Of a DNA stretch of 64,000 nt, positions 49,304 through 64,000 are shown piece by piece (within the stretch, counting starts at the first letter, position 1; each line of letters opens with the position of its first letter). The translations under genes were made by a program, and so were the position numbers. Source of the DNA: an uncultured Dorea sp. (lineage in GTDB: Bacteria > Bacillota > Clostridia > Lachnospirales > Lachnospiraceae); contig CANSLW010000001.1 in NCBI GenBank assembly GCA_947647815.1, positions 215 through 64,214 on the forward strand, written 5' to 3'. The notes below the pieces were generated by a model, which saw nothing but the letters and a program-made list of their open reading frames with translations, was not told where the DNA came from and ran no database searches.

Positions 49304-51049
49304 ATGGCGAGTCAGAAGATTGAGAATTTATTGAACCTGGCACTGGATGCGACGCCAGAGGAACGGGAGAAATCACTGGAACTGGATGTGGGATATAATC
49401 CGGTGGAGAGGGAATGGGATTTGATTGTGAAATACTCGGGAAGTCTCGAAAGAGTGCGCGAATTAGCATCTCAGGTGGTAGAGATGCAGAATGAGTATGC
49501 AGTTATCACAATACCAGAATCTCAGATCGACGCTCTGACGCAGATTCCGGAGATAGAATATATTGAAAAGCCGAAGAGATTATTTTTCCAGGTTGCGAAT
49601 GGAAGACGGGTATCTTGTATCAATGCGGTACAGGATACCCGTTTTTCCTTATTTGGACAGGGAGTTTTAGTTGCGGTGATTGATTCTGGAATCGATTATG
49701 AGAATGCGGATTTCCGTAACGAGGACGGGACGACGAGGATCCGTGCACTGTGGGATCAGTCGCTATCACCTGGGGAAGGGCGTATTCCGCCAAAGGGGTA
49801 TGCAATCGGCGCAGAATATACGGCAGAACAGATTAATGAAGCGTTGAAGCAGGCAACAGTTATGGAGAGGCGCAAGATAGTTCCAAGTGAGGATACTTCG
49901 GGGCATGGCACGGCAGTGGCAGGGGTTGCGGCAGGAAATGGAAGAAATAGCAACGGTAGATTTGCGGGTGTGGCACCGAAGAGTGAACTGATTGTAGTGA
50001 AGCTTGGCAATCCGAGACAGGAGGGATTCCCACGGACGACGGAACTGATGCAGGGACTTGATTATGTGATAAGAAAGTCATTGGAATTGCGGATGCCAGT
50101 GGCGGTCAATATCAGTTTCGGCAATACCTACGGTTCCCATGACGGGACATCTCTTCTGGAGCGATATATTGATGATTTGTCTAATATATGGAAGAGCAGT
50201 ATCTGCATCGGCTCCGGCAATGAGGCGGCGAGTGCGGGGCATACATCTGGCATGCTAAAGGAAGGAAAAGAAGAAATCATACAATTAGCGGTACAGAGCA
50301 GCCAGACGGCGCTTAGTGTACAGATTTGGAAAGAATATACGGATGTGGTGGACATTTCCCTGATGACTCCGGCGGGGGTTACGGTAGGACCGATTCAGGA
50401 GATACTTGGCTCGCAGAGGTTCACTGTCGGTCAGACGGAAATCTTGTTGTATTATGGGGAGCCGAGCCCGTACAGTACGGCGCAGGAGATCTATATTGAT
50501 ATGCTTCCAAGGGATACGTATGTGATGAGCGGAGTGTGGAGAATCATTCTGAATCCGCGAAAGGTGGTATCCGGAGCGTATGAGATGTGGCTGCCTAGCG
50601 AAAATGTCCTGAACAGAGGGACGGGGTTCTTATTTCCGACGGACCAGACGACCCTTACGATTCCTTCTACCGCAGCCAGAGTGATTACGGTGGGTGCGTA
50701 TAATGCGCTGACCTTTGCTTATGCGGACTTTTCTGGGAGAGGATATACAAGGGAGACGAATCTGGTGAAGCCGGATCTTGTGGCGCCGGGGGTAAATGTG
50801 ACGGCGCCGGCTGTAGGGGGAGGATACGCGGAGTTTACAGGGACCTCCTTTGCGACGCCGTTTGTAACAGGGAGTGCGGCGTTATTGATGGAATGGGGGA
50901 TTGTGAGGGGGAATGATCTTTATTTATTTGGCGAGAAGGTGAAGGCTTATTTAAGGAGAGGAGCAAAGCCATTGCCGGGATTTGATGTATATCCTAACCC
51001 GCAGGTGGGGTATGGGGCGCTTTGTGTTAGGGATAGTATACCGATATGA
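49304..51049 (+). CDS. S8 subtilisin-like serine peptidase (Csp germination protease-like)
   Basis: Catalytic triad VAVIDSGID / GHGTAVAG / GTSFATP; prodomain; jelly-roll-like insertion. Confidence 0.9.
   Translation: MASQKIENLLNLALDATPEEREKSLELDVGYNPVEREWDLIVKYSGSLERVRELASQVVEMQNEYAVITIPESQIDALTQIPEIEYIEKPKRLFFQVANGRRVSCINAVQDTRFSLFGQGVLVAVIDSGIDYENADFRNEDGTTRIRALWDQSLSPGEGRIPPKGYAIGAEYTAEQINEALKQATVMERRKIVPSEDTSGHGTAVAGVAAGNGRNSNGRFAGVAPKSELIVVKLGNPRQEGFPRTTELMQGLDYVIRKSLELRMPVAVNISFGNTYGSHDGTSLLERYIDDLSNIWKSSICIGSGNEAASAGHTSGMLKEGKEEIIQLAVQSSQTALSVQIWKEYTDVVDISLMTPAGVTVGPIQEILGSQRFTVGQTEILLYYGEPSPYSTAQEIYIDMLPRDTYVMSGVWRIILNPRKVVSGAYEMWLPSENVLNRGTGFLFPTDQTTLTIPSTAARVITVGAYNALTFAYADFSGRGYTRETNLVKPDLVAPGVNVTAPAVGGGYAEFTGTSFATPFVTGSAALLMEWGIVRGNDLYLFGEKVKAYLRRGAKPLPGFDVYPNPQVGYGALCVRDSIPI
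50926..51010 (+). repeat. Left copy of the duplicated S8 3' segment (candidate att site)
   Basis: ATTTGGCGAGAAGGTGAAGGC (50926-50946) is identical to 57582-57602; homology continues for 85 bp. Confidence 0.8.
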
Positions 51050-51082
51050 ATATTTGATCATGGAAACTTAAGAAATCCGGTC

Positions 51083-51112
51083 TTGACAGTCTCTTATATT
51101 TAGCTCTATAAT
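51083..51112 (+). promoter_or_regulatory. Near-consensus SigA promoter of the islet
   Basis: TTGACA-N18-TATAAT. Confidence 0.6.
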
Positions 51113-51450
51113 AACAAATAAAGAATTGTGCCTTACATCAAGTTTCGTATATGTATTTTAAACATTCAATAATTAACGGTATTAGTACGCTAATGTTCAG
51201 AATATATGAAGATGCTTGTTGGTTTTGAGTTATTGCTTAATGAGCTGATTTATCATTTAGAAAGGTATTGGTTCATTTGGCAACAATTTTCTTTGCGGTT
51301 CATTAATGATAAGGAAGAACTCTTGATTTGTGCTTTGATATTCGCGAATAAAAAGTAGTTTTTATTCACAATTGAGTTTTTTAATGCATAAACATTGATG
51401 GAAGCACATACGAAATTTTAATAATCGAACGAAATGGAGCGAATCCTCAT

Positions 51451-51792
51451 ATGTGTTGTTATCGAATTAATACGGAAGTCTTATTGGCAAATTTATTTGC
51501 TAGATCTAAGGAATATCCAATTAGCTACTCTGTACCTAATGTTAATGGATATTTACATTTTTTGTCTGAAAAGTTTCCTACGTATTTAACCACAAATCTT
51601 TCGGAACAAGCGATTTGTGATTGTACTGTACAGTATCCGGAACTTTATCAGTTATCAAAGGATACGAATGGAAATATTGTTGTGAAATCGGGAGGATTTC
51701 GTCCAAATTTAGATTATTTTAATTCCGTTTATTCTGAAGGCGTATGTAATTATATTGAAAGTGTAACATATGCTTATCTGGAAACCTTGTAA
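51451..51792 (+). CDS. Hypothetical 113-aa protein, first gene of the islet operon
   Basis: Intact ORF with GGAG upstream; no family recognised. Confidence 0.65.
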   Translation: MCCYRINTEVLLANLFARSKEYPISYSVPNVNGYLHFLSEKFPTYLTTNLSEQAICDCTVQYPELYQLSKDTNGNIVVKSGGFRPNLDYFNSVYSEGVCNYIESVTYAYLETL

Positions 51793-51906
51793 CAAGAAGT
51801 TATCGTAGTAATGTGATTTTTGTCTGTGTTGCTATATGAATCTTCATACCCGTCTGACACATTGTTTCTGATGCCAGATGGGTAAATTTATTTTACATAC
51901 GGAGAA

Positions 51907-54903
51907 GTGATCGAAATGATGAATATGAATTTTAATCGCGAGATGAGTCATTATGATTGGGATAACCAAACAGTTTTTAAAGATGCTGTCTTAGGGTATA
52001 TTAATGTACCGAAAGCAGTTACCCATACCTTGATTGATCATAAAATTTTTCAGCGCCTGCGAGATGTGGCGCAGACTGGTATGGAAACACTCTACCCAGG
52101 AGCAACACATAATCGGTTTTGCCATTCTGTGGGCGTATATCATTTGGGAAAACTGGCATTCTACAATTTTCAGCAAAATGTAAAAAAGCAACATCGAGAT
52201 GAAATCTATTATAAAATAGCTAACATAGAGGAGGACTGTGAGCGTGTATGGAACCGTTGGCGTTTCCTTTTCGAAATGGCCTGTCTTCTTCATGACTGTG
52301 GCCATGCTCCCCTATCTCACGGACTGGAATTTCTTTATGATGTTTCCAATTCAGAGACAGGGACGGACGATGCAGATATTTTGCATAAACCAATCAATGC
52401 TAATCTGTTGGAAGCCTTTAATAGTAATGGCAATTTTCGAGACTGTTTTATAAAGCGAAACAAAGAGACGGGCACTTTACTTAACGAAGTTTGTGGTGCT
52501 CCTCACGAAAGGATGAGTGCCTGTTTGATTATTGCAGAAGGAGCAGATGGTTATAAGGATGCTCTCCGGAAGCTTATTGCTGATCAGATGCGTTATTTTG
52601 AGGAAACGGCATTAGCGAAAACTTACGAAAACAATTACTCGGATGAAGAATTTTTATCCGATTTAGAGTTTATGACTAGAATGATTATTGGTTGCAAATA
52701 CAATTCGAAATCCACATTCGAAGGCGAGGAAAAGGGGAATGAAAAAATTGTTTTTCCATTGCGCAATTGTATTATTGGCCTGCTGAATGGAATTATTGAT
52801 ACAGATAATATTGATTACAGTATCCGTGATGCGACTGCTTCCGGTTATAAAAGTGCACAGGTAGATTATGAGCGGTTGTTAAAATCTAATACAATTGCCC
52901 TTGCTTACGAACATAATGATTTAGAGTTGAAGGGGGAGCAATTCGACTATTCGGTTTGTTTAAAACATTTTGTGTCTGATTATGTTACGGAAGATTCTCC
53001 GCTTTCTATGACAATCAGTGGTAGTGCTACTTTAGTACTAAAATGGTCAGGGGTGAAAACGAAGAATGCGGAGCATGTCGGACTGAAAATAACTGGAGAT
53101 ATCTGGGAAGATGATGAACACAACAGCGATAAACGAGTCCGGGTGATCCATATTCGGGAGGAAAGTAGTATTAATTTGATGATATGGGATGGGCAGTTAG
53201 AGATAAGGCCACGAAACAAGAATTTAGGACGAGGTGCTCAATTATACTTGTATAGTCAAAACTTAAGTGGAAAAATAGAAGGTACTATTTTTGTGGGAAA
53301 TCAGTTCTCCCTAAGTCAAAATGATAGTGACTTGAAAACGCGGATTCAAAATGGAAAAATGAAAATTTTTCCAGCTTATCACAAAAGTGCCTTGAGCGTA
53401 ATACAAGGTGCCTTGGATGCTTCGAATTTTGAGTCAAGATGGATTTATTCTCATCATGCAACGACATATCTTAATAATTTTTTGAACGTATTTCTTTTGG
53501 AAAAATATGCAGATTTTTGTGTGGAAGAGGAATATTGTGAGTTACTTCGGAAAACGAACAACTTTATCGAATTCCATGAACGGTTTAAAGGCCAGGGAAA
53601 AGAATGCTTAAGTTACCAGGGGGCAGATAAAATCTTAGAACAGGCTGGGAAAGAGTTGAAAAATGCAAAAGATCGACTAAGTTCTCAAGCGAATCAGAAG
53701 AATGAAAAAGATGGTTTAAAGGTATCAAAAGATTGTCCAAATTCAATAAAACGAGGGTTAATTAAAGGTTTTTTGCCGGAAAGTTTACCAGATTTTAAAC
53801 ATGAATATGATTGGGAGATATTTGATGCCTTGCTACGTGTGCTTATTAAGCTTTGCCGACCTATTCCTATCGATTGGCCGATGCCAGGAGAGGAAAAAGT
53901 ATGCGCCAGTATCGATCGGATCATTAATGCGATTAATCATTTGGTCGATACCTCTGGGAATACAGTAGAGCTATCTTTATTGGAGAAGAAAGTATATCAA
54001 GAGTTGCGGAAACAGATTACTTCTCATGCAGATATCCGTAAATATGGCATGCCAACAATGAATGCATTATTAGGCATGAAAGATTCCCAATCGGTTTATG
54101 GACATCAATATTTCCGAACCAGTGATTCTGATTTGCGAAGCATGTATCACTGCTTAATGCAAAATGCAACTGACGAACAGAAAAAAACTCATAGTGATTT
54201 ATTTTATGCAATCGAACAATATGAATCACGGAATTATCTTGCACCCATGTGGAAATCCCATGCGGAATTTCATTTTTATGTGCAGGGGTGGAAAGATGAA
54301 TGGTTTCAAAAACGGGAAGTAAGGACACCAAATAAGGATTATTCTCAATCTTGGATCGAAAGCTTTTTTAATAATATTACTGCTCCATCAAATTATAATA
54401 ATGTTTCGATGTATACCTATTTTTCTGAACAGGAGTCTTGTTCGCTTACGCCGGTTTTAGCAACATTTTGGCAGTGTGCCAGAAAACTTTTTCAGTTAGA
54501 TATTTTGGTATATGTTCCTCAAAAAATAAAACATAAACGATTAAGTAACGATAGCACGTATGTTATCTGGAAAAACCGGGTAGTTACTTTGAAAGATATC
54601 GGACTTCAAACCAGTCATGCAGATGAGCATAGTTATTTCTATCTCTATTATCGGCTGACAAATGAAGCCGAAAAGTCGGGAACCATTCTAGACATTCCAG
54701 AGTTTATGAATTTTTTAAGGAAAGAACTGGATATTTGGATTGAAGCCGAAAAGGGGAAAGAGGAGCAAAGTATATATAAAGGTAAACCAGAAATTGAATT
54801 AAAGAAAGTTCCGAAGACAAAGATTGATAAGCAGAGCACATATGATGTCAATTCGGAAATATTACCGAAACAAGTTTCTAAGACGGAGGATATACAAGCA
54901 TGA
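51907..54903 (+). CDS. Large HD-domain phosphohydrolase (SAMHD1/dNTP triphosphohydrolase-like) with insertions
   Basis: FKDAVLGYI, FQRLRDVAQTG, YPGATHNRFCHSVG, LLHDCGHAPLSH, HERMS, DTDNIDYSIRD; start may be 51916. Confidence 0.85.
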   Translation: MIEMMNMNFNREMSHYDWDNQTVFKDAVLGYINVPKAVTHTLIDHKIFQRLRDVAQTGMETLYPGATHNRFCHSVGVYHLGKLAFYNFQQNVKKQHRDEIYYKIANIEEDCERVWNRWRFLFEMACLLHDCGHAPLSHGLEFLYDVSNSETGTDDADILHKPINANLLEAFNSNGNFRDCFIKRNKETGTLLNEVCGAPHERMSACLIIAEGADGYKDALRKLIADQMRYFEETALAKTYENNYSDEEFLSDLEFMTRMIIGCKYNSKSTFEGEEKGNEKIVFPLRNCIIGLLNGIIDTDNIDYSIRDATASGYKSAQVDYERLLKSNTIALAYEHNDLELKGEQFDYSVCLKHFVSDYVTEDSPLSMTISGSATLVLKWSGVKTKNAEHVGLKITGDIWEDDEHNSDKRVRVIHIREESSINLMIWDGQLEIRPRNKNLGRGAQLYLYSQNLSGKIEGTIFVGNQFSLSQNDSDLKTRIQNGKMKIFPAYHKSALSVIQGALDASNFESRWIYSHHATTYLNNFLNVFLLEKYADFCVEEEYCELLRKTNNFIEFHERFKGQGKECLSYQGADKILEQAGKELKNAKDRLSSQANQKNEKDGLKVSKDCPNSIKRGLIKGFLPESLPDFKHEYDWEIFDALLRVLIKLCRPIPIDWPMPGEEKVCASIDRIINAINHLVDTSGNTVELSLLEKKVYQELRKQITSHADIRKYGMPTMNALLGMKDSQSVYGHQYFRTSDSDLRSMYHCLMQNATDEQKKTHSDLFYAIEQYESRNYLAPMWKSHAEFHFYVQGWKDEWFQKREVRTPNKDYSQSWIESFFNNITAPSNYNNVSMYTYFSEQESCSLTPVLATFWQCARKLFQLDILVYVPQKIKHKRLSNDSTYVIWKNRVVTLKDIGLQTSHADEHSYFYLYYRLTNEAEKSGTILDIPEFMNFLRKELDIWIEAEKGKEEQSIYKGKPEIELKKVPKTKIDKQSTYDVNSEILPKQVSKTEDIQA

Positions 54904-57158
54904 GACAAGATGAATACATTTCCGCAAGTTATGGTATAAATTATGGTGGAATCCGTATTCGCGATAGCGTGTATGGGGACATTTTGATTCCGCAAAAATT
55001 TCTACCGATTATTGATAGCTATGCATTCCAACGCCTTCGCCGTGTCCGGCAATTGGCAACGGCTCAGTACGCTTTTCCAGGTGCTGATCATACTCGTTTT
55101 GCCCATTCTTTAGGTACGTTTTACGTGATGCAGCAGATCATCACTCATTTTGAAAATTATTTTCAAGAATTAGGGATGTTAAATTATATTGACCAAAATG
55201 AAAAAGATTTACTTTTAGTTGCTGCTCTTTTGCATGATTTGGGACATACTCCTTTTTCGCATGCAATGGAGGATGTTATGCGCAATGCAAAAAAGATTCC
55301 TCATGAGCAGTGGACAGTTGATATTATTGAAACGGAAGAAAAAGAAGGCGGATTGCTAGAAATTATTGAAAACCAATTCGGTAAAGGAAGTGCGAAGAAA
55401 GTTTCTGATTTGATCTTGATGCATCAGGAAAACAACTTGTTTTTTTCTTCCGAAGAGATGAATTTAAGCAGTATTTTTCACTCCTTAATTTCCAGTCAGC
55501 TTGATGCAGACCGACTTGACTATCTAAGAAGAGATTCGGTATCTACTGGTTTTTCTTACGGATTAATCGATATTGATCGGATTATCAGTGGTTTCCGCAT
55601 TGGTATTTTGGAAGATGGAAAGGCGGTTGTATGTGTCGCGGAAAAAAATCTCCCGGATGTGGAGGGATATTTGTATGCCAGATATCAGATGTACCGAAAT
55701 GTGTATCTCAAACCTTTCAAGATGTTAACGGAGGAACTGCTGAAAAAAATTATTTATTGTGTTTATGAACTTTATGATCAGGACAAATTAAAGATTTCTG
55801 ATTTGCCTTCTGGATTTAAAGCAGCACTCCAGCAGCCAATTATGGGAGTTATGGATTTTCTTTCTCTGGATGACTATGTAATTATGGGTGCCGTTAAAGG
55901 TTGGGCCAGCTTAACCGGTGAACATACCCAGATTCTTCAAAAGCTATGCCAATGTTTAATTTATCGGAGAGGGTATCAGCAGTATGAGTTTGTAGATGTT
56001 CAGCCGGAAACCATTCATTTTTTCAAAAGTGAGTTGATTGCTATTCTTAAACCATACATGTCAGAAGAATTTATCCAGAGGTTTCCAGAAAATAATTTAG
56101 ATGAGTGGATTAAGCAATTTCCATTTCTTGTCCTTAGAGTAGAATTTCCTCAGCTTTATAAGACGAATAAGGATAATATTTATATTCTTGAAAATAGCGG
56201 ACGTTTGGTAGAAATATCCGATTGTTCAAACTTGGTTCGGGCGTTCCCATCGTTGGATAGCAATGGTATAGGTGATCCAAAATCTGTTGTTTCTGCTATT
56301 TACTATAATCCAGAAATGTTGGAAATATATCTTAATGAAGCTACGGTTTTTCAATTCCCACAGGAAGAGAAATGGGATAAAATCAATGAAATTAAGGAAA
56401 AGGTGCAAAAATTGTTTGAACGGAATCAAGCTAGAAACTGTATTGAAATTGAAAAGAAATATTACATTCCTAATAAGAATGACTGGGAACAAACTAAAAA
56501 AGATTTTCTTACTTTCTTTGAAAAAGAAGGATACCATTATATTGGTAAACATTCTTTGGAATCATTACAATCGGTTACACAGATCGATTATTACTTGGAT
56601 ACCACTGATAATAAATTGTTGAAGGAACATTGTTCCTTGCGTATCCGTATCAATGGAACAAAAGCAGAGATCACTTGTAAACGGCCAGTAGAAGGAAGCC
56701 GCTCTAATGGGAGTATGGGACAAGTAGAACGTTACGAGTATGCTGCTCTGCTGAAAGATGTAGATCTTACTAATGAAGAAGCGATTTATTGCAGTGCTGA
56801 AAGTAAAGCATTTATCAGGCGTTATTTACAAGGTATGGTGGAATTCGAGGATTTGAAAGTAACGATTGTTATTAGGAACGAGCGTATTAAATGTCTTTTT
56901 CAAAAACAAGAAGTTAATAATATATCAGTTCGGGGATTGGAAAAATACGAGTTGGCCTTTGACTCAGTAAACTATAATAATTGTGAAAACAAAAAAATCT
57001 GTCAAGAGCATCAAGTTGAAATTGAGTTAAAATCGGATCCGCTTACCAGATTAAATATGCAGATGTTGACGAATCGATTGGAAAAAGAATTGGGAAAATA
57101 TGGATTGCATATTATGACAGATTCTAAATATGAGAGGGCAAAGAGGTTCACGATGTAA
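54900..57158 (+). CDS. HD-domain phosphohydrolase (SAMHD1-like) fused to a C-terminal CYTH domain
   Basis: IRDSVYG, FQRLRRVRQL, HTRFAHSLG, LLHDLGHTPFSH, HEQWT, DADRLDYLRRD; CYTH motifs EIEKKY, QIDYYLDT, LRIR, EIELK, SKYER. Confidence 0.88.
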   Translation: MRQDEYISASYGINYGGIRIRDSVYGDILIPQKFLPIIDSYAFQRLRRVRQLATAQYAFPGADHTRFAHSLGTFYVMQQIITHFENYFQELGMLNYIDQNEKDLLLVAALLHDLGHTPFSHAMEDVMRNAKKIPHEQWTVDIIETEEKEGGLLEIIENQFGKGSAKKVSDLILMHQENNLFFSSEEMNLSSIFHSLISSQLDADRLDYLRRDSVSTGFSYGLIDIDRIISGFRIGILEDGKAVVCVAEKNLPDVEGYLYARYQMYRNVYLKPFKMLTEELLKKIIYCVYELYDQDKLKISDLPSGFKAALQQPIMGVMDFLSLDDYVIMGAVKGWASLTGEHTQILQKLCQCLIYRRGYQQYEFVDVQPETIHFFKSELIAILKPYMSEEFIQRFPENNLDEWIKQFPFLVLRVEFPQLYKTNKDNIYILENSGRLVEISDCSNLVRAFPSLDSNGIGDPKSVVSAIYYNPEMLEIYLNEATVFQFPQEEKWDKINEIKEKVQKLFERNQARNCIEIEKKYYIPNKNDWEQTKKDFLTFFEKEGYHYIGKHSLESLQSVTQIDYYLDTTDNKLLKEHCSLRIRINGTKAEITCKRPVEGSRSNGSMGQVERYEYAALLKDVDLTNEEAIYCSAESKAFIRRYLQGMVEFEDLKVTIVIRNERIKCLFQKQEVNNISVRGLEKYELAFDSVNYNNCENKKICQEHQVEIELKSDPLTRLNMQMLTNRLEKELGKYGLHIMTDSKYERAKRFTM

Positions 57159-57436
57159 GAATATTTTATGAAGTGAGCAGGGCATGGAAAGCTAGGAATA
57201 TATAGAAAAATTTTCATTATAACATTTTTGCTTGACACTAATTTACCATTAATTTCATTCAAAATTAGTAATTAATGGACCACACTTCTCATGAAATTAT
57301 GTAGGTTTCAGTAGTTTTTCTTCGGAAAAATATTTGTTGACACTTATTTCAGAGGGAAAAGCTACGGATAACATAGCTAGATAAACCGAATAGTCAAAAT
57401 AAGAATATATTGCTTTGAGATGTCAAAAGTAATAAT

Positions 57437-57476
57437 AAAAAGGGCTGTCAGAAATGAATAATTCTGATGGCTCTTA
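57437..57476. terminator. Possible terminator after the HD-CYTH gene
   Basis: AAGGGCTGTCAGAA...TTCTGATGGCTCTT hairpin. Confidence 0.45.
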
Positions 57477-57581
57477 ACAATTAAGGATTAGGTCAAAATA
57501 TGTTTTGGTATCGTTTATAAAGAGAAAATAAAGGAATATTAAAAAAATATAAAAAATTGTTAGTCCTTACTTGACAGCATC

Positions 57582-57666
57582 ATTTGGCGAGAAGGTGAAG
57601 GCGTATCTGCGGCGTGGGGCGAGACCGCTGCCCGGATTTACAAAGTATCCAAATCCGCAGGTGGGG
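57582..57666 (+). pseudogene. Displaced/diverged 3' fragment of an S8 peptidase gene (right att copy)
   Basis: Translates FGEKVKAYLRRGARPLPGFTKYPNPQVG vs FGEKVKAYLRRGAKPLPGFDVYPNPQVG in the intact gene (25/28 identical). Confidence 0.8.
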
Positions 57667-57668
57667 GC

Positions 57669-57957
57669 GTATGGTAATATAGTGTCAAGTTAGCAAGGAG
57701 CCGATAAAATCAAGGGTTTCCGCTGATTTAGTCCTATAAAAAAGCTGCTGTAAAACAGCAAAAATGGATTGGAACGGGCCTGTTTTTAATCTGAACACCG
57801 AAGATCAAACAACTTGACACTAATATACCATTAAGCCGATTGGTATTAGAAAGGGTGTCGAAAAAGGAGTGATAACTGAATAGTTTAAGTTTAGGTAGGA
57901 CTAAATTAGCTTTTGAGACGGACAAGTTCCGTGTCTGTATGGCTGATTTAGTCCTAT
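57669..57957. repeat. Element-end repeats
   Basis: ATGGTAATATAGTGTCAAGTT (~57669-57691) is nearly inverted at ~57812-57832 (AACTTGACACTAATATACCAT); GCTGATTTAGTCCTAT direct at 57722 and 57942, inverted at 57896. Confidence 0.7.
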
Positions 57958-58006
57958 TTATTTTACACGATCAACAGACGGATCGCAACAGGAAACGGAG
58001 GCATAG

Positions 58007-58186
58007 ATGGAAAACAGGAAATTGACTGTTTACAGTGGAACCACCAGAGGGTACAACCTGATCCCCAAGATCATACTGCAAGGGCACTGGCTGAATGGCC
58101 TGGGGTTTTCCATAGGGGACAAGGTGGCGGTATCCTGTCAGCAGGATAAGATCATCATAGAACGGATCACAGAGGATCCAAAATAG
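58007..58186 (+). CDS. SymE-family type I toxin / AbrB-fold small protein (59 aa, missed by the ORF track)
   Basis: MENRKLTVYSGTTRGYNLIPKIILQGHWLNGLGFSIGDKVAVSCQQDKIIIERITEDPK; 'P.I.L.G.WL...GF..G..V.V' signature; GGAGG RBS. Confidence 0.75.
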   Translation: MENRKLTVYSGTTRGYNLIPKIILQGHWLNGLGFSIGDKVAVSCQQDKIIIERITEDPK

Positions 58187-58242
58187 CAGACACAAGGCGA
58201 TAGAGCAGGTAGCTGGCAAAGGCCAGGAGAAGGGAGATACAT

Positions 58243-58689
58243 ATGGCAGATATTAACAAAGTCTTTGAGGAAGCACAGAAACTGAAATGGAACATTGGGA
58301 GTCTTCTGAAACTTTCCGGTTATGAGAGGAACGGCGACCTGAGCGGTCTGAACATTGATTATGAGGACGGCGAACAGCTTTTTCTCACGGAGGAACTGCG
58401 GGGGATCATGGAGAAACTCGATGATGTGAACTGGAGATTGAAATACCTCTCCAGGCCGGTCAAAGAAGTCAGCTGCTTACATAAAAACCGCAGCGGCAGA
58501 TATGAGACATCTGGTGGGCATTCTTACACAAGCGGGCATGGCATCGAAGCTCTGGTGCCGGATGACTACTCAGACGTGAACTGCTGGGTGCGGACGCGGG
58601 TGGAACATGACGGAAAAGACTACTATCTGGTGGGACACCACGATGTGAGCATGGAAGGATTGACCGTCCGTATCAGAGAGGGGGTGTAA
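58243..58689 (+). CDS. DUF5348-like ICE protein
   Basis: C-terminal 'GRYE....YTSG..IE...WVRTRVEH...YYL...GLTVRIR'. Confidence 0.6.
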   Translation: MADINKVFEEAQKLKWNIGSLLKLSGYERNGDLSGLNIDYEDGEQLFLTEELRGIMEKLDDVNWRLKYLSRPVKEVSCLHKNRSGRYETSGGHSYTSGHGIEALVPDDYSDVNCWVRTRVEHDGKDYYLVGHHDVSMEGLTVRIREGV

Positions 58690-58691
58690 CT

Positions 58692-59474
58692 ATGGGAGCG
58701 ACTGTCTACTGCCTGTGTAATCAGAAAGGCGGATGTGCAAAGACCATGAGTTCCGTAAGCCTTGGTATCGGGCTGGCCCGTGAGGGAAAGAAAGTCCTCC
58801 TGGTAGACGTGGACGCGCAGGGTTCCATGACCGCAAGCCTGGGCTATCAGCACCCTGACCGTATGGAGGTCACACTGGCTACGATACTGGGCGCTGTCAT
58901 CACGGATTCCCCTCTGCCGGAGGGCGGGGGGATCCTCCACCATGAGGAAGGGGTTGACCTTCTTCCGGCCAACATCGAACTGTCCGGCCTTGAGGTCACT
59001 CTGGTAAACACCATGAGCAGGGAGACAATCCTGCGCCAGTATCTCCAGACTATCCGTGACGCATATGATGTGGTCATTCTGGACTGTATGCCCTCTCTCG
59101 GTATGCTGACGATCAACGCTCTGGCGGCGGCAGACGAGATACTGATACCTGTGCAGGCTCAATACCTTTCGATCAAGGGGTTGGAGCAGCTGATCCGGAC
59201 GATAGCGAAGGTAAAGCGGCAGATCAATCCGGGGCTGGCCATTTCTGGGATACTTGTCACCATGGCGGATATGCGGACGAATTACGCAAAGGACATCGTG
59301 GAGATCCTGCACAAGACTTACGATGGGAAATTGCGGATATTTGACAGCATTATCCCACTGTCTGTCCGGGCGGCAGAGACCAGCGCGGAGGGAAAGAGCA
59401 TTTATCTCCATGACCCCGCCGGTAAAGTGGCGGCGGCTTACCAGGCATTGACCAGAGAGGTGGTGGGCAGGTGA
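58692..59474 (+). CDS. parA: ParA/Soj partition ATPase
   Basis: NQKGGCAKT, VDVDAQG, LDCMPSLG. Confidence 0.9.
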   Translation: MGATVYCLCNQKGGCAKTMSSVSLGIGLAREGKKVLLVDVDAQGSMTASLGYQHPDRMEVTLATILGAVITDSPLPEGGGILHHEEGVDLLPANIELSGLEVTLVNTMSRETILRQYLQTIRDAYDVVILDCMPSLGMLTINALAAADEILIPVQAQYLSIKGLEQLIRTIAKVKRQINPGLAISGILVTMADMRTNYAKDIVEILHKTYDGKLRIFDSIIPLSVRAAETSAEGKSIYLHDPAGKVAAAYQALTREVVGR

Positions 59475-60388
59475 AAAGCAGTGCGAAGAACATCGAACTG
59501 ACCACCTTTGACGACCTGTTTGGGTCTGGGAACCCGGCAGGGGACAGCAACGGAGCCATCCGGGAGATCCCACTGGCAGACCTGTTCCCCTTTAAGGGCC
59601 ACCCGTTCAAGGTGTTGGACGATCAGTCCATGGAGGAAATGGTGGAAAGTGTCCGGGAGCATGGCGTTCTCGTTCCGGGGATCGCCCGTCCCCGCGTGGA
59701 AGGCGGCTATGAACTGGTCGCCGGACATCGGAGGCGGCACGCTTCTGAGCTTGCTGAAAAGACTACCATGCCGGTGATCATCCGGGAACTGGACGATGAC
59801 GAAGCTACCCTTTTTATGGTGGACAGCAATATCCAGCGGGAGAACCTGCTCCCCAGTGAAAAGGCGTGGGCCTATAAAATGAAGCTGGATGCAATCCGGC
59901 GCAGGGCCGGCAGACCCGGTAAAGGAAATTCTGGACAAGTTGGCCAGAATTTAAAAGGGAAGGTATCGGTGGAGATCGTGGCGGAAAATGCCGGAGAAAG
60001 TTACAAGCAGGTGCAGAGGTATATCCGCCTGACAGAACTCCTCCCACAGCTTTTACAGATGGTAGACGATAGGAAACTGCCCTTCAATCCCGCTGTGGAA
60101 CTGTCCTATCTTACCAAGGAAGAACAGGAAAAGCTACTTATTATAATAGCAAAACTATCCGTAGTCCCTTCTCTGGAACAGGCAAGACGTTTGAAAAAGT
60201 ACAGCCAGGAGGGACAGCTGAGTGGGATCGTGATGGACGCGATACTTTCAGAGGAACGTCCGCTTCCTGTCCAGGTGACATTAAAGAATGAACGATTAAG
60301 GGAGTATTTTCCCCAAAGCTATACCCAGAAACAGATAGAGGAAGTGATCTATTCACTCCTAAAGACATGGAAAACTGAACATGAATAA
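59471..60388 (+). CDS. parB: ParB/RepB/Spo0J partition protein
   Basis: HPFKV, YELVAGHRR, DSNIQRENLLPSEKA, QRYIRL. Confidence 0.9.
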   Translation: MKSSAKNIELTTFDDLFGSGNPAGDSNGAIREIPLADLFPFKGHPFKVLDDQSMEEMVESVREHGVLVPGIARPRVEGGYELVAGHRRRHASELAEKTTMPVIIRELDDDEATLFMVDSNIQRENLLPSEKAWAYKMKLDAIRRRAGRPGKGNSGQVGQNLKGKVSVEIVAENAGESYKQVQRYIRLTELLPQLLQMVDDRKLPFNPAVELSYLTKEEQEKLLIIIAKLSVVPSLEQARRLKKYSQEGQLSGIVMDAILSEERPLPVQVTLKNERLREYFPQSYTQKQIEEVIYSLLKTWKTEHE

Positions 60389-60398
60389 GGCCGCATAT

Positions 60399-60439
60399 GC
60401 CGCTCGGTAACTGACTGATAGTTACCGGGCGGCTTTTTT
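60399..60439 (+). terminator. Intrinsic terminator after parB
   Basis: GCCGCTCGGTAACT...AGTTACCGGGCGGC followed by TTTTTT. Confidence 0.75.
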
Positions 60440-60524
60440 GCGTTCAAGATAGATCTGCCCTGGCTGACGTTTCACCTGCCGGGGCTTTTTTTGTTTCAAA
60501 AACCGGAAAAGGAGGCAGGACAAT

Positions 60525-61493
60525 ATGCCATTACAACTGGATTACTACTATGGCAACGAAGCGGAACAGTACAGCTTCTACCGTATCCCTAAGGTACTGT
60601 TCACAGATGGACGTTTTAAGGGCTTGTCTGTAGAAGCAAAGGTACTTTATGGATTGCTGCTCGACCGCATGGCCCTCTCTGTCAAAAATAACTGGATGGA
60701 TCAGGACGGGCGTGTCTACATCATTTACACCATTTCTGACGTGATGGAGACCCTTGGCTGCGCGGAGCAGAAAGCAAACAAGTTGCTGAACGAACTAGAC
60801 ACGGCAAAGGGCGTTGGACTGGTAGAGCGTGTCCGGCGTGGGCTTGGAAAACCAAACGTGATCTATGTCAAAAACTTTATTGGAAAGGTATCACCAGAAA
60901 CCCGGCAGGAATCACAAATCAAGAATTGTGAAAATCACAAATCAGGAAATGTGAAAACCACAAGTCAGGAATTGCGAAAATCACAAACAAATAATACTGA
61001 CTTAAATAAAACTGACAAGAGTGATACTGATCCATCTATCTATCCGGCAGGAACGGGGCGGCCGGATGTGGAAACTGTGGATAACTTTTCACGGACAGGA
61101 GAAAAAAAGATAGATGGGATGGATAAGATGTCCGCCTACCGTGAATTGATCCGGGAGAACATCAGCTATGAGATACTTTTGCAGGATAACCCTTATGACA
61201 GGGAACGTCTGGACGGCTTTGTGGAACTGATGGCGGAGGTCTGTTGCAGCAGACGGCCTACGGTGCGCATCAACCAGGAGGACATGTGTACGGAGGTGGT
61301 AAAGAGCCGCCTGCTGAAGCTGGACAGTGAGCATATCCGCTATGTTATGGACTGCCTGGATAAGAACACGACGCTGATCGGGAATATCCGGGCCTATACC
61401 CTTTCCGCCCTATTCAATGCCCCGGTGACGATCAGCCAGTATTATTCCAGCCTTGTCAGCCACGACATGGCAGGCGGCTTCGGCACGGGATAA
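60525..61493 (+). CDS. repA: RepA_N-family replication initiator with DUF6017-like C-terminus
   Basis: FYRIPKVLF, AKVLYGLLLDRM, GLGKPNVIYVK; C-terminal VKSRLLKL...NIRAY..ALFNAP. Confidence 0.88.
   Translation: MPLQLDYYYGNEAEQYSFYRIPKVLFTDGRFKGLSVEAKVLYGLLLDRMALSVKNNWMDQDGRVYIIYTISDVMETLGCAEQKANKLLNELDTAKGVGLVERVRRGLGKPNVIYVKNFIGKVSPETRQESQIKNCENHKSGNVKTTSQELRKSQTNNTDLNKTDKSDTDPSIYPAGTGRPDVETVDNFSRTGEKKIDGMDKMSAYRELIRENISYEILLQDNPYDRERLDGFVELMAEVCCSRRPTVRINQEDMCTEVVKSRLLKLDSEHIRYVMDCLDKNTTLIGNIRAYTLSALFNAPVTISQYYSSLVSHDMAGGFGTG
60910..61084 (+). repeat. Intragenic 23-bp iterons plus DnaA box (putative oriV)
   Basis: CACAA cores at 60913, 60936, 60959, 60982; TGTGGATAA at 61076-61084. Confidence 0.7.
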
Positions 61494-61586
61494 GAGCAGC
61501 TCTCTTTTTCCGCTGGTAAGTTTTTATCGCTGTGAAGGCCCTTGAAGGCTGGCACATAAACAAGAACATTTAAAGGAGGACAACAA

Positions 61587-62039
61587 ATGACACAAAACAT
61601 GGATATCCTGATCGTGGAGCCGGGAAAAGCACCCCGTCCGGCGGTGATCCCCAACACACTGGAGTCAGTGGAAACGGTACTGGGAAGAGCCGTACAGGTA
61701 GGCTGTTTCCTGCCCCAGAAGGTACTCCTCTTCAGCCGGGAAGATACTACCGGCCTTGCCCCGAACCGCTGTCTGCCCGGAGGGAACGGCTATGTGAGCG
61801 GCACTTTCCTGTTGTGCGGCATACCGGAAAAAGGGTGCCTTTTCGCTTCCCTTACCGCCGGACAGCAGAAAGAGTTCCAGGATATCTTCGCAAGGCCGGG
61901 GGAATTTATGATGGTTGGCAGCACGGTCTATGCGGATCCCGATGATGTGGCGGATGTGGTATACGGGCTTTGGGATACTCTTTCTGACGGTGATACAGTG
62001 GTGCTGACGAAGTGGGGCGGCACGGAAAGCGGGGCATAA
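61587..62039 (+). CDS. DUF3846-like ICE protein
   Basis: 'ILIVEPGKAP...IPNTLE', 'PNR...GTFLLCG...FASL'. Confidence 0.6.
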   Translation: MTQNMDILIVEPGKAPRPAVIPNTLESVETVLGRAVQVGCFLPQKVLLFSREDTTGLAPNRCLPGGNGYVSGTFLLCGIPEKGCLFASLTAGQQKEFQDIFARPGEFMMVGSTVYADPDDVADVVYGLWDTLSDGDTVVLTKWGGTESGA

Positions 62040-62069
62040 ATGACAATATCAAGTACCGGAGGTAGCACT

Positions 62070-62579
62070 ATGGATCACGACGCAAGGCAATCCCCGGCAG
62101 GCGTGATGAATCCCATACAGCGGCAGGAAAAAATGATCCGGGCATTATACGATCTACTGGATAAAAATATGGCTGACTTTGACACGGCTCTGGAGGGCAT
62201 AGATAAAGCTGAGACCGCTGATATGAAAGAAGTTTCTGATACGCGGGAAATATACGAGTTCATTCGATATTCTTACGATGAATTTGGACAGCGAGATGTA
62301 GAGCTTCTGCTCCGCATGGAAAATCCCCTGAAGTTTATAGTGGACAACTGGCCCTGCCATGATCTTGAAACGCTGGCGATGAACCACTTGACGGATAAGG
62401 AAATGGAGGGATCCGGCAAAGAGGCGCTGCCGCAACCTGTCCATGACAGAAAAGACGCAGAAAAGCCCTCTATTTTGAAACAGATCAAAACCAGCCTGGG
62501 ACAGATCAGGGCCAAAAGGCAGGAGGCACGCCAGCAGCCTGTCATGGCAGAACCGCCCAAGGGCGGTGAGCCCCGCTAA
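62070..62579 (+). CDS. ICE hypothetical protein (DUF3848-like module)
   Basis: 'LLLRMENPLKF', 'KPSILKQI', ends KGGEPR. Confidence 0.6.
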   Translation: MDHDARQSPAGVMNPIQRQEKMIRALYDLLDKNMADFDTALEGIDKAETADMKEVSDTREIYEFIRYSYDEFGQRDVELLLRMENPLKFIVDNWPCHDLETLAMNHLTDKEMEGSGKEALPQPVHDRKDAEKPSILKQIKTSLGQIRAKRQEARQQPVMAEPPKGGEPR

Positions 62580-62608
62580 CATATTGGACGGAAGGAGGTA
62601 AAAATTCT

Positions 62609-63406
62609 ATGGACTACGAAGCAAAGCGCCCCTTAATGGATCGGATCGACAAGAACCTTTTGGAACATATGGCCGCTGCCGGAAGGAAAGAAGGCGGGCC
62701 GGAGATCCTGGACGCCTATCTTCTCCAGGGTTTATCCGAAACCCACTACTATCTGAAAGTGGATCATGATTTTAAGCCCAACGAGGTAGCGGCTCTCCTG
62801 CGATTTTCCGACCCACTGGCTGTGGCGCGGGAGTGTTGGGAGGAACGAGACCCCGAAAAGGGATTCCCTATCTGTGACCTGCTTGACAAGATCAGGGCAT
62901 ACGAGCGGTTTCCGTTAGCAGATCCGGCTGGTCATGCACAGCAACAGGAGCAGATGGTAACCGTACTGAAAGCAGTGCTGGATCAGAACATGGCCGAGTT
63001 CCATGAGTCGCTTCTGCGTATGGACAAGGAGGAGATCATCGAACAAAGCGCAGAGATCGCCGCTATGCAGGCGGCATACGACTTTATGAAAGATGATTTC
63101 AGGTTTGAACGGGGCGACGCGGAGACGTTACTCTGTATGGAGAACCCTCTTCAATTTATCGCTGAACAATGGCCTTCCAATATGGCTGAATTATTCGATA
63201 TGAGTGGACAGATAGGGGAAGCGATCATGGACGCCGGTAAAGACACAGCAGAGCAACAGAAAGCGGATCAGGCCATGTCGGCAGAGGAAAAGTCCTCGAT
63301 ACGTTCAGAAAAGCCCTCGATCTTAAGTGATCTGAGCGATAAAAAACGGGAAGTCGGTCAGCGTAGTATGGCTGAGAGCAAGGCTAAGGGCGGTGAGGCC
63401 CGATGA
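62609..63406 (+). CDS. ICE hypothetical protein (two DUF3848-like modules)
   Basis: 'LLRFSDPLA', 'LLCMENPLQF', 'KPSILSDL', ends KGGEAR. Confidence 0.65.
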   Translation: MDYEAKRPLMDRIDKNLLEHMAAAGRKEGGPEILDAYLLQGLSETHYYLKVDHDFKPNEVAALLRFSDPLAVARECWEERDPEKGFPICDLLDKIRAYERFPLADPAGHAQQQEQMVTVLKAVLDQNMAEFHESLLRMDKEEIIEQSAEIAAMQAAYDFMKDDFRFERGDAETLLCMENPLQFIAEQWPSNMAELFDMSGQIGEAIMDAGKDTAEQQKADQAMSAEEKSSIRSEKPSILSDLSDKKREVGQRSMAESKAKGGEAR

Positions 63407-63443
63407 AACAGCCTGCCACTTACAGGAAAGGAGGTAAAGCATT

Positions 63444-63911
63444 ATGCAGGACGAAGTAAGGGATAAATCGGTCGCACTGGTGATACGGGTCGGAAAAGAC
63501 GGCGGAAAGCTGACAGCGGAACTGCTGAAATGGGCGATCCGGCAGTACCAGAAACAGGCACATGAGCAGAAACACGGCAAGCAAAGCGTCAAAAGTCTGG
63601 TAAAGCAGGGAGCCGGTGTCCAGAACATTGAGATCACCGACCAGAACATCAAGTCTTTTGAACGCTGCGCCCGCAAATATGGGATAGATTTTGCTTTGAA
63701 GAAGGATCCTTCACAGGGGAAATACCTTGTGTTTTTCAAAGCCCGTGACACTGACGCGCTGGAAGCCGCCTTTGCGGAATACACAGCGAAAACTTTGAAA
63801 CAGCAAAAGAAACCGTCGTTAAAAAAGCAGCTCTCCCATTTTAAGGAGATTGTGAAGGGGCTGGTATCCGGCAGGGAGAAGAACCGGGACAGAGGAGGTC
63901 ATGAGCGATGA
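63444..63911 (+). CDS. PcfB/DUF3801 conjugation protein
   Basis: HGKQSVKSL, ARKYGIDFA, YLVFFKARD, KPS. Confidence 0.85.
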   Translation: MQDEVRDKSVALVIRVGKDGGKLTAELLKWAIRQYQKQAHEQKHGKQSVKSLVKQGAGVQNIEITDQNIKSFERCARKYGIDFALKKDPSQGKYLVFFKARDTDALEAAFAEYTAKTLKQQKKPSLKKQLSHFKEIVKGLVSGREKNRDRGGHER

Positions 63912-64000
63912 AGAACATTGAGATTAAAAAATATGTGATCCCCAACCTGCCTTATGTGTTTATGTTCTGGTTTTTCTCCAAGGTCGCGGAATGTTACCGT
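63908..64000 (+). CDS. 5' start of a probable VirD4/TraG-like coupling protein (truncated)
   Basis: MKNIEIKKYVIPNLPYVFMFWFFSKVAECYR, ATGA overlap with pcfB; call rests on gene order and the 'NLPY' N-terminus. Confidence 0.6.
   Translation, partial: MKNIEIKKYVIPNLPYVFMFWFFSKVAECYR

Follow-up and report, generated by a model that had tools for sequence, protein, structure and literature searches.

Does an operon built around two relatives of SAMHD1 protect its bacterial host by depriving phages of nucleotides? The question is raised by positions 51,451 to 57,158 of a 64,000-nucleotide (nt) stretch of DNA from an uncultured Dorea sp. (assembly GCA_947647815.1, contig CANSLW010000001.1; the whole stretch is hereafter called the window). 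Three genes lie there: a small open reading frame (ORF), a gene for a giant SAMHD1-like HD hydrolase (HD1), and a gene for a second such hydrolase that ends in a CYTH domain (HD2-CYTH). We found that they form a real module, which is conserved and apparently unnamed and is likely an undescribed SAMHD1-family nucleotide-depletion defence system. For a defence role, and for that claim alone, we estimate a probability of about 75%.

Conservation and composition of the module

The initial annotation, made from the sequence alone, described a three-gene operon in an AT-rich, repeat-flanked islet next to an integrative and conjugative element (ICE), with the two HD genes translationally coupled, both products carrying the full SAMHD1/COG1078 motif set while diverging from each other, and the second ending in CYTH. 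Our data bear this description out. The islet (51050-57581) has a GC content of 35.5%, versus 43.7% for the genome and ~50% for both flanks, and it holds the three ORFs between copies of a degenerate repeat. HD1 and HD2 overlap by ATGA at 54900-54903, with GGAGG 11 nt upstream; the small ORF is separated from HD1 by 114 nt, and that junction is therefore not translationally coupled. The motifs were located at D26, FQRLR48, HNRFCHS68, HDCGHAPLSH129, HE200, and DTDNIDYSIRD298 in HD1 and at D22, FQRLR43, HTRFAHS64, HDLGHTPFSH112, HE135, and DADRLDYLRRD202 in HD2, and the two proteins are alignable over only ~118 amino acids (aa), at 34% identity. Pfam assigns HD and CYTH domains to HD2-CYTH and no domain to HD1.

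Searches with the HD1 protein yielded 204 sequences (72 matches and 132 further representatives), 32 of which join HD1-type, HD2-type, and CYTH parts in a single chain of 1380-1660 aa. For 98 HD cores, a quick tree was computed by maximum likelihood, with SH-aLRT support only; all 46 HD1-type cores fell into one clade (support 99) and all 32 HD2-type cores into another (98). Both clades stand apart from the generic enzymes, beside those of the EF1143 type, and the fusions are scattered over several positions within the HD1 clade. A recent HD duplication as the origin of HD1 and HD2 was rejected on the basis of these separate clades. The split three-gene form also occurs in genome G444, and a small ORF followed by an HD1-HD2-CYTH fusion occurs in G386. 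In addition, the longest contig of 17 of the 35 long-HD1 clusters is identical in size to that of one of 40 HD2 clusters, and the divergences of these cluster pairs correlate (rho 0.93), which is indirect evidence of linkage.

Among the 33 HD1-clade loci with upstream DNA, a small-family gene lies directly upstream of the HD1-clade gene in 26 and downstream in one (L179); it was not detected in the other six, which speaks against an invariably upstream order. Four of these six (L261, L262, L263, and L270) have a different ORF of 108-155 aa directly upstream, without a profile match, that may encode a distant member of the small-protein family or a replacement for it. The profile was built from 21 of the 26 upstream loci; the other five, which are prophage loci, represent independent matches (E 1e-30 to 7e-7), and the 160 loci retrieved with generic HD motifs contained no small-family match. 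The expectation that the three genes co-occur was supported by the fusions and by the upstream small ORF, with the refinement that HD2-CYTH is present in only 2 of 35 other loci. The conserved core is the small ORF plus HD1, and HD2-CYTH is an optional extension.

A compact two-gene form, consisting of a ~120-aa acidic protein and a 430-590-aa HD protein, is far commoner than the three-gene form (L174:8939-10959, L178, L180, L203, L265, L269, and L272; L265 and L267 are one contig, as are L268 and L269). HD2-CYTH proteins were seen in Aeromonas, Clostridium, and Treponema (P0126, P0136, P0137, and L002). When genomes and metagenomes were scanned with the HD2 alignment, nearly all matches were generic enzymes, which served as controls; three were HD2-clade loci (L001, L002, and L081). 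A generic SAMHD1-like relative on a giant-virus-like contig (L274) was excluded from the counts. A second CYTH match in the gene-order search (G1078) was set aside as an unrelated CYTH-phosphatase-CHAD protein; similarly, L209:3885-5927 encodes a CYTH, histidine phosphatase, and CHAD protein that is unrelated to the module.

Predicted activities of HD1 and HD2

The structure model of HD1 (pLDDT 84.6) displays a complete SAMHD1 fold with N- and C-lobes (Z 26.5, rmsd 3.7, 401 aligned). It aligns to SAMHD1 114-560 and includes both the N-terminal beta-hairpin and the C-lobe. Inserted into this fold are a beta-rich segment (aa 328-492) and a helical one (aa 517-706), and a disordered tail is present as well; neither insert matches Pfam, and the beta-rich one also has no sequence match in the PDB. 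HD1-clade proteins fall into size classes of ~430-590, 690-800, and 850-1000 aa, with an insert after DxDxxDY of ~57 residues in compact HD1s versus 175-217 in those of middle size.

Active-site residues were compared in SAMHD1 numbering taken from an alignment, with the R366 position in HD1 mapped by motif spacing and residue roles as given in excerpts of PMC7045340 and PMC5207538. The equivalents of H167, H206, D207, D311, H210, H215, H233, R164, Q149, and D319 are kept in all 53 HD1 rows and in 62-63 of the 63 HD2 rows. Because the metal ligands and catalytic histidines are retained family-wide, both HD1 and HD2 are likely active enzymes.

In HD1, the deoxyribose-gate residue L150 is replaced by T (T57; T in 169 of 172 members of the HD1 clade) and the phosphate-binding R366 by S506, this arginine being lost in 29 of 30 long HD1s; Y374 (Y514) and H376 (H516) are kept. 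Compact HD1 relatives often carry Q for Y374 and H for R366. The pocket of HD2 for deoxynucleoside triphosphates (dNTPs) is complete (L150 = L52, Y374 = Y269, R366 = R261), and HD2 lacks H376, which is K271 in the window. Among close HD2s, 24 of 26 have lost this histidine, as have 24 of the 26 fusions that could be scored. H376 is kept in the most distant HD2-CYTH proteins. Both window proteins retain the A1 allosteric site D137/Q142/R145 (D44/Q49/R52 in HD1 and D39/Q44/R47 in HD2), and R145 is replaced in 25 of the 30 long HD1 rows. The closest solved relative of HD2 is EF1143 (E 1.6e-90; the profile aligns to chain 37-456), and we predict that HD2 is a dNTP triphosphohydrolase like EF1143, a comparison drawn from excerpts of PMC3190883. 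The reciprocal loss of R366 from long HD1s and of H376 from HD2s suggests a division of labour in a mixed HD1/HD2 oligomer.

The CYTH domain as a predicted triphosphatase

All 114 CYTH sequences compared carry the motifs of triphosphate tunnel metalloenzymes (TTMs), that is, ExExK, DxY, small-x-RxR, and ExE, represented in the window by E516/E518/K520, D563/Y565, R581/R583, and E707/E709. SAMHD1-type dNTPases release inorganic triphosphate (PPPi), and because of this the simplest role that the sequence suggests for the CYTH domain would be the clearing of PPPi made by such an enzyme. Rules that separate cyclases from triphosphatases are set out in section 10 of PMC8233210. The cyclase HF motif (HFxxxxExExK) occurs in 0/114 CYTH sequences, and the gate-keeper arginine R581 and the second glutamate E709, both replaced in cyclases, are kept in 114/114. 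Triphosphatase rather than cyclase activity is predicted for the domain, and since it lacks all three published cyclase motifs, cAMP-type signalling is unlikely. The thiamine-triphosphatase motif W/YxRxR is not matched either, the window having S579 and 106 of 114 sequences having S or T. According to PMC8233210, SaTTM also cleaves ATP and GTP, and by that precedent the CYTH domain may act as an NTPase.

The small acidic protein

No Pfam domain was found on the small ORF; the ESM Atlas gave no usable match for it and only unnamed clusters for P0325. It ranks first of 17,675 frames of its own genome with a leave-one-out profile (E 0.017-0.029), and profile-profile comparison with the family (hhalign) gives a probability of 93.6%. 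A narrow profile, made from the 120 closest small proteins of the compact type, missed it; broader profiles found it. By these comparisons, it is a divergent member of a family of at least 823 clusters. The structure model (pLDDT 85) has mostly winged-helix domains as its top matches (Cdc6/ORC, Sir3, forkhead, MarR, and PadR), all of them middling (best Z 7.4, rmsd 3.3, 98 aligned; no Foldseek match with E<=0.001), and the fold class is likely winged helix.

The family is uniformly acidic, with an isoelectric point (pI) below 7 in 120/120 close members and in all 65 rows of alignment A4, a median of ~4.9, and a value of 4.78 in the window. Since DNA-binding proteins would fit poorly with such uniform acidity, it argues for action by protein binding rather than DNA binding, and the small protein is likely an inhibitor or sensor.

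Distribution and genomic context of relatives

HD1-clade genes were found in 11/400 family, 4/398 class, and 6/400 phylum genomes and in 3/17 congeners, levels at which differing thresholds and profiles were used. They are also present in six viral contigs: once between lysin and repressor/integrase genes, once between holin and recombinase genes, and once after a tail gene, the remaining ones adjoining restriction-modification (R-M) genes, AbiE, or an AAA and S8 pair. No CYTH domain was found in the viral contigs, and searches of INPHARED phages (with a compact HD query) and PLSDB plasmids gave no module match, apart from one generic HD.

At L264:5217-6722, an HD1-clade gene without a small partner lies within a BREX operon, between pglX and brxH. 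A small + HD1 pair is situated between AbiG and Wadjet in L174, and in the 874-aa protein P0039 a TIR domain is fused N-terminally to an HD1-clade domain.

Two further loci have unusual neighbours. In L200:11703-13602, the small + HD1 pair precedes, on the same strand, genes for a radical-SAM protein (with a weak match to a viperin model, E 2e-19) and for an EEP phosphatase; together they may form a larger nucleotide-modifying operon. At L173:553-7501, a small ORF and a fused HD-HD-CYTH gene are preceded by an HTH-IrrE (RmrA-like) gene and followed by unknown, GrpE-like, Hsp70-like, and TPR-DUF2971 genes.

A defence hotspot at the csp 3' end

The repeat that flanks the islet (85 nt, 75% identity between its copies) duplicates the 3' end of a CspB/S8 protease gene (csp), in the same reading frame. 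A full or nearly full csp orthologue is present in 14 of 17 congeners, 13 of which have downstream DNA (the contig of G793 ends). At these 13 sites, the cargo is of defence type in 8, an ICE-like element in 3, and neither in 2, in keeping with the earlier statement that defence genes accumulate at integration hotspots. The site holds RADAR in G798 and G324, PDC-S01 followed by type I R-M in G790, Lamassu-like SMC and Cap4-type nuclease genes in G797, Schlafen and TOTE in G804, SIR2-TPR in G791, and a zeta-type kinase in G805. A type II methylase, an ATPase, and an HNH gene lie between csp-end copies in G796. Besides these eight, G800 has a complete Wadjet enclosed by two such copies. The csp 3' end is thus a recurrent integration site and defence hotspot in the genus.

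Cargo stacked between degenerate csp-end copies was also observed (window 50926-51049, orthologues L238-L257). Several of the genes at the csp site, L241:1194-6167 and L251:8222-9094 among them, match no family and might be additional candidates for defence.

Features of the locus and the adjoining ICE

Table 1. Features at and around the module (window positions)
Feature	Position	Strand	Basis
Host gene for a CspB-prodomain + S8 protease, with the integration hotspot at its 3' end	49304..51049	+	Pfam PF18425 + PF00082
Left copy of 85-nt repeat, within csp 3' end	50926..51010	+	Repeat analysis
Candidate operon promoter, sigma-70-type TTGACA-18-TATAAT (12/12)	51083..51112	+	Consensus match
Small ORF, 113-aa acidic protein, predicted winged helix	51451..51792	+	Family membership, fold model, pI, gene order
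HD1, SAMHD1-like HD hydrolase, 998 aa from GTG	51907..54903	+	Alignment, structure model
HD2-CYTH, 752 aa: EF1143-like HD (aa ~20-480) and TTM-type CYTH (aa ~512-752)	54900..57158	+	Pfam, alignments, motifs
Isolated ICE-end 22-mer copy, 95% identical to 57813-57834	57231..57252		Repeat analysis
Right, degenerate csp 3'-end copy; islet boundary and ICE entry point	57582..57666	+	Repeat analysis, G801 comparison
Left part of ICE	57667..64000	+	DUF5348, ParA, ParB, RepA_N, DUF3801; inverted repeats 57671-57691/57811-57831

The likely operon promoter is a candidate by consensus: it is the sole 12/12 match among 17 sigma-70-type sites of >=9/12, and shuffled sequences yield ~26 such sites. For HD1, GGAG at 51901 suits an ATG start at 51916 better than the GTG at 51907.

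The ICE starts within the right-hand csp copy. Its left part is an 80% match to the end of a related ICE in G801, and that ICE is inserted at the same junction, in a csp gene that is otherwise intact. The islet is therefore separate cargo beside the ICE, and its interpretation as part of the ICE was rejected. A 19-22-nt motif occurs around the ICE end in three copies, direct and inverted (57231-57252, 57671-57691, and 57811-57834); these are likely recombinase sites, and the one within the islet was possibly left by an earlier element. The ICE repA holds four 23-nt tandem iteron-like repeats (60910-61000).

An assembly error as the source of the HD1/HD2 split was rejected: separate relatives of ~950 aa and ~750 aa are usual, and independent contigs agree. 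Within the same study, a contig from a second sample runs across the HD1-HD2 junction with 0 differences; in a different study, a contig of 6451 nt (X4) covers the islet at ~93% identity. The data sets that best match the arrangement are labelled mouse gut metagenome, one of them possibly the source of the window, and no RNA data set was listed, which has no bearing on expression. The X4 contig has a 1-nt deletion at window position 54686, near the HD1 3' end, and no full-length HD1 matching its islet was present among the HD1 protein search matches; HD1 may be altered there.

Comparison with known systems

PADLOC 2.0 gave only weak N-terminal dGTPase and Cas3-HD matches for the window and homologue proteins, and NCBIfam (June 2026) had nothing above cut-off on the three window proteins. 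With Pfam likewise giving no match to the architecture, its earlier reading as something other than a named system still stands. A full-text literature search found no description of the arrangement; its reach did not extend to a 2002 paper on CYTH or to Nicastro et al. 2023, which may already list the architecture. The word "CYTH" is absent from the text of PMC13519002 and two of its supplements and from PMC13434031, and a term search of PMC3440374 gave nothing relevant. Bacterial nucleotide-depletion defences in the literature searched are dGTPases (the Shewanella enzyme, Clover, and Vdg), and an excerpt of a January 2026 review states that bacterial SAMHD1-like defence proteins may be unidentified (PMC13276650).

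The module resembles SAMHD1/COG1078 enzymes (YdhJ; EF1143, PDB 2O6I/3IRH) in its N-/C-lobe fold, in its metal, catalytic, and A1 residues, and in the full dNTP pocket of HD2. Unlike these enzymes, it has two dissimilar, often fused HD chains with reciprocal loss of pocket and allosteric residues, ~350 aa of HD1 inserts, a CYTH fusion, and a predicted winged-helix partner, and it is mobile and rare. Apart from H376, HD2 fits the SAMHD1-like family, of which HD1 is a divergent branch.

The anti-phage dGTPase Dgt (PDLC02374, NF041026) and the octameric Vdg (PMC13519002) are likewise HD triphosphohydrolases, with TIR fusions reported there, and by analogy the module likely follows the same dNTP-depletion logic. 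However, Dgt models match the module at 17-40 bits over the first ~130 aa only (cut-offs 152-405), NF041026 at 27 bits (cut-off 400). Furthermore, Dgt systems are single genes, and Dgt enzymes have no C-lobe according to an excerpt of PMC7854603, whereas the HD1 model has one. In Clover (CloA dGTPase and CloB nucleotidyltransferase; PMC12265719), as is proposed here, a small partner gene keeps a defensive dNTPase in check, and Clover is the closest functional analogue. It differs in that its partner is a Pol-beta nucleotidyltransferase, whereas the small protein here is a predicted winged helix, and in that the module has an extra HD and CYTH; no nucleotidyltransferase match was obtained on any of the three proteins with Pfam, PADLOC, or NCBIfam. 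On these sequence comparisons, we do not consider the module a member of the Dgt or Clover systems.

CYTH-HD hydrolase fusions are mentioned in general terms in PMC8233210, which cites a 2002 paper for them. The TTMs SaTTM, YgiF, and BH2851, which share all TTM motifs and are the best PDB sequence matches of the CYTH part, differ in their setting: here CYTH belongs to a defence-like operon and is joined to a SAMHD1-type enzyme, which releases PPPi. The generic Bacillus-type pair of a COG1078 HD gene and a ~170-aa gene, which we take to be YwfO-YwgA, also combines an HD gene with a small neighbour; there, unlike here, the gene order is opposite and the chromosomal position is conserved, and the small proteins show no profile similarity. 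A YwgA-like identity for the small ORF was rejected (profile-profile probability 0.05%).

Proposed mechanism and alternative explanations

We propose a chain of brake, release upon infection, nucleotide triphosphate depletion by HD1 and HD2, PPPi clearing by CYTH, and phage block, and we rate its chances as a whole at slightly less than even. The small protein would act on HD1 as an antitoxin does, by binding and restraining it, as its association with HD1-clade genes and its uniform acidity, poorly suited to DNA binding, suggest. A phage protein or a phage-driven change in the nucleotide pool would lift this restraint. HD1 and HD2 would then act as a mixed SAMHD1-type oligomer, to which HD2 would contribute a canonical pocket that converts dNTP to deoxynucleoside and PPPi, and HD1 the allosteric histidine missing in HD2 together with an active site whose substrate range is shifted. 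CYTH would split PPPi into pyrophosphate and phosphate and so remove the product, and the shortage of dNTPs would halt phage DNA replication, probably at a cost to cell growth. A bolder version, which we consider unlikely, would be a SAMHD1-family (not Dgt) antiviral system with a mixed oligomer in which one HD subunit has turned from dNTPs to another class of nucleotide (ribonucleotides, or nucleotides modified by the phage) and controls its partner subunit; a winged-helix safety catch, acidic and tripped by the phage, and a dedicated PPPi eraser would complete it.

Several observations weigh against a defence system of this kind. The altered HD1 pocket, in which T takes the place of L150 almost throughout the clade (169/172), suggests that HD1 may not be a plain dNTPase, and dNTPs are not established as its substrate. 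HD2-CYTH is absent beside 33 of 35 other HD1-clade loci, and in a Treponema contig (L002) it occurs next to a dTDP-sugar gene without HD1 or the small ORF; because of both, an HD1-HD2 heteromer would not be obligatory. When the two nearest genes per side were scored by defence-specific PADLOC models, strong hits (E<1e-50, a threshold chosen after the output was seen) appeared at 5/29 HD1-clade loci (100 genes) versus 0-1/29 generic-HD controls (116 genes), the control loci coming from other taxa. The defence-island neighbourhood sought by the initial annotation is in evidence to that extent, but the general enrichment is modest, 24/29 loci having no near defence gene, and ~9/29 lie in apparent polysaccharide-synthesis clusters, as judged by eye. 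The csp hotspot also holds non-defence cargo (ABC transporter genes and whole ICEs). Finally, no other SAMHD1-like gene was found in the window's genome, which is 78% complete, and this leaves room for a housekeeping role.

The changed pocket, combined with the retention of all catalytic residues, is the chief argument for a two-step nucleotide relay, in which HD1 would act on a non-standard substrate (a ribonucleotide, a phage-modified nucleotide, or a short oligonucleotide) to make or remove a ligand that switches HD2 on, with CYTH as the reset. The Y374-to-Q and R366-to-H changes of compact relatives and the two large HD1 inserts without a family match would fit such a relay, and Clover, whose defensive dNTPase is gated by the nucleotide of a partner enzyme (PMC12265719), offers a precedent. 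At the 33 loci without HD2, however, there would be no HD2 to signal to, and HD1 would have to be its own effector; we regard the relay as rather improbable.

The module could also be a toxin-antitoxin pair, with the HD enzyme as a toxin that depletes nucleotides and the small protein as the labile antitoxin, kept by selfish persistence without phage protection. Its gene order (small gene upstream of the enzyme in 26/33 loci), its insertion over unrelated contexts, and the many loci far from defence genes are as such a pair would have them. Left unexplained are the added HD2-CYTH, the fusions, the TIR fusion, and the BREX position, and PLSDB plasmids, where addiction modules are expected, gave no match. 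We judge this explanation improbable to much the same degree; many toxin-antitoxin systems are themselves anti-phage, and the two readings overlap.

Constitutive or allosteric trimming of the dNTP pool in the manner of EF1143, with CYTH recycling phosphate and the winged-helix protein regulating transcription, would account for the closeness of HD2 to EF1143, for the 12/12 promoter match, and for the missing second SAMHD1-like gene in the incomplete genome; SAMHD1-like dNTPases are common accessory genes according to an excerpt of PMC7854603. Against such housekeeping stand the separate clades of HD1 and HD2 (SH-aLRT 99 and 98), the rarity, low GC, and shifting contexts of their genes, prophages included, whereas many generic genes keep a fixed neighbour, and the acidity of the small proteins (120/120 with pI <7). 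We think it quite unlikely. A last alternative is that CYTH is a class IV cyclase whose cyclic nucleotide is read or degraded by HD1 or HD2: CYTH does include the CyaB cyclases, and some plant TTMs are reported to make cAMP, but the motif counts given above (HF 0/114; R581 and E709 114/114) make this highly improbable.

Implications

A nucleotide-depleting defence module remains our preferred reading, and its relatives provide a natural series from a two-gene core through the three-gene form to a single polypeptide of 1400-1650 aa. If the reading is true, the known connection between bacterial and animal immunity would reach SAMHD1's own family, the PPPi for a CYTH triphosphatase would have a physiological source, and a dNTPase would be shown to have a protein-based brake. 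The csp 3' end would then be a defence hotspot that can be mined for further systems.

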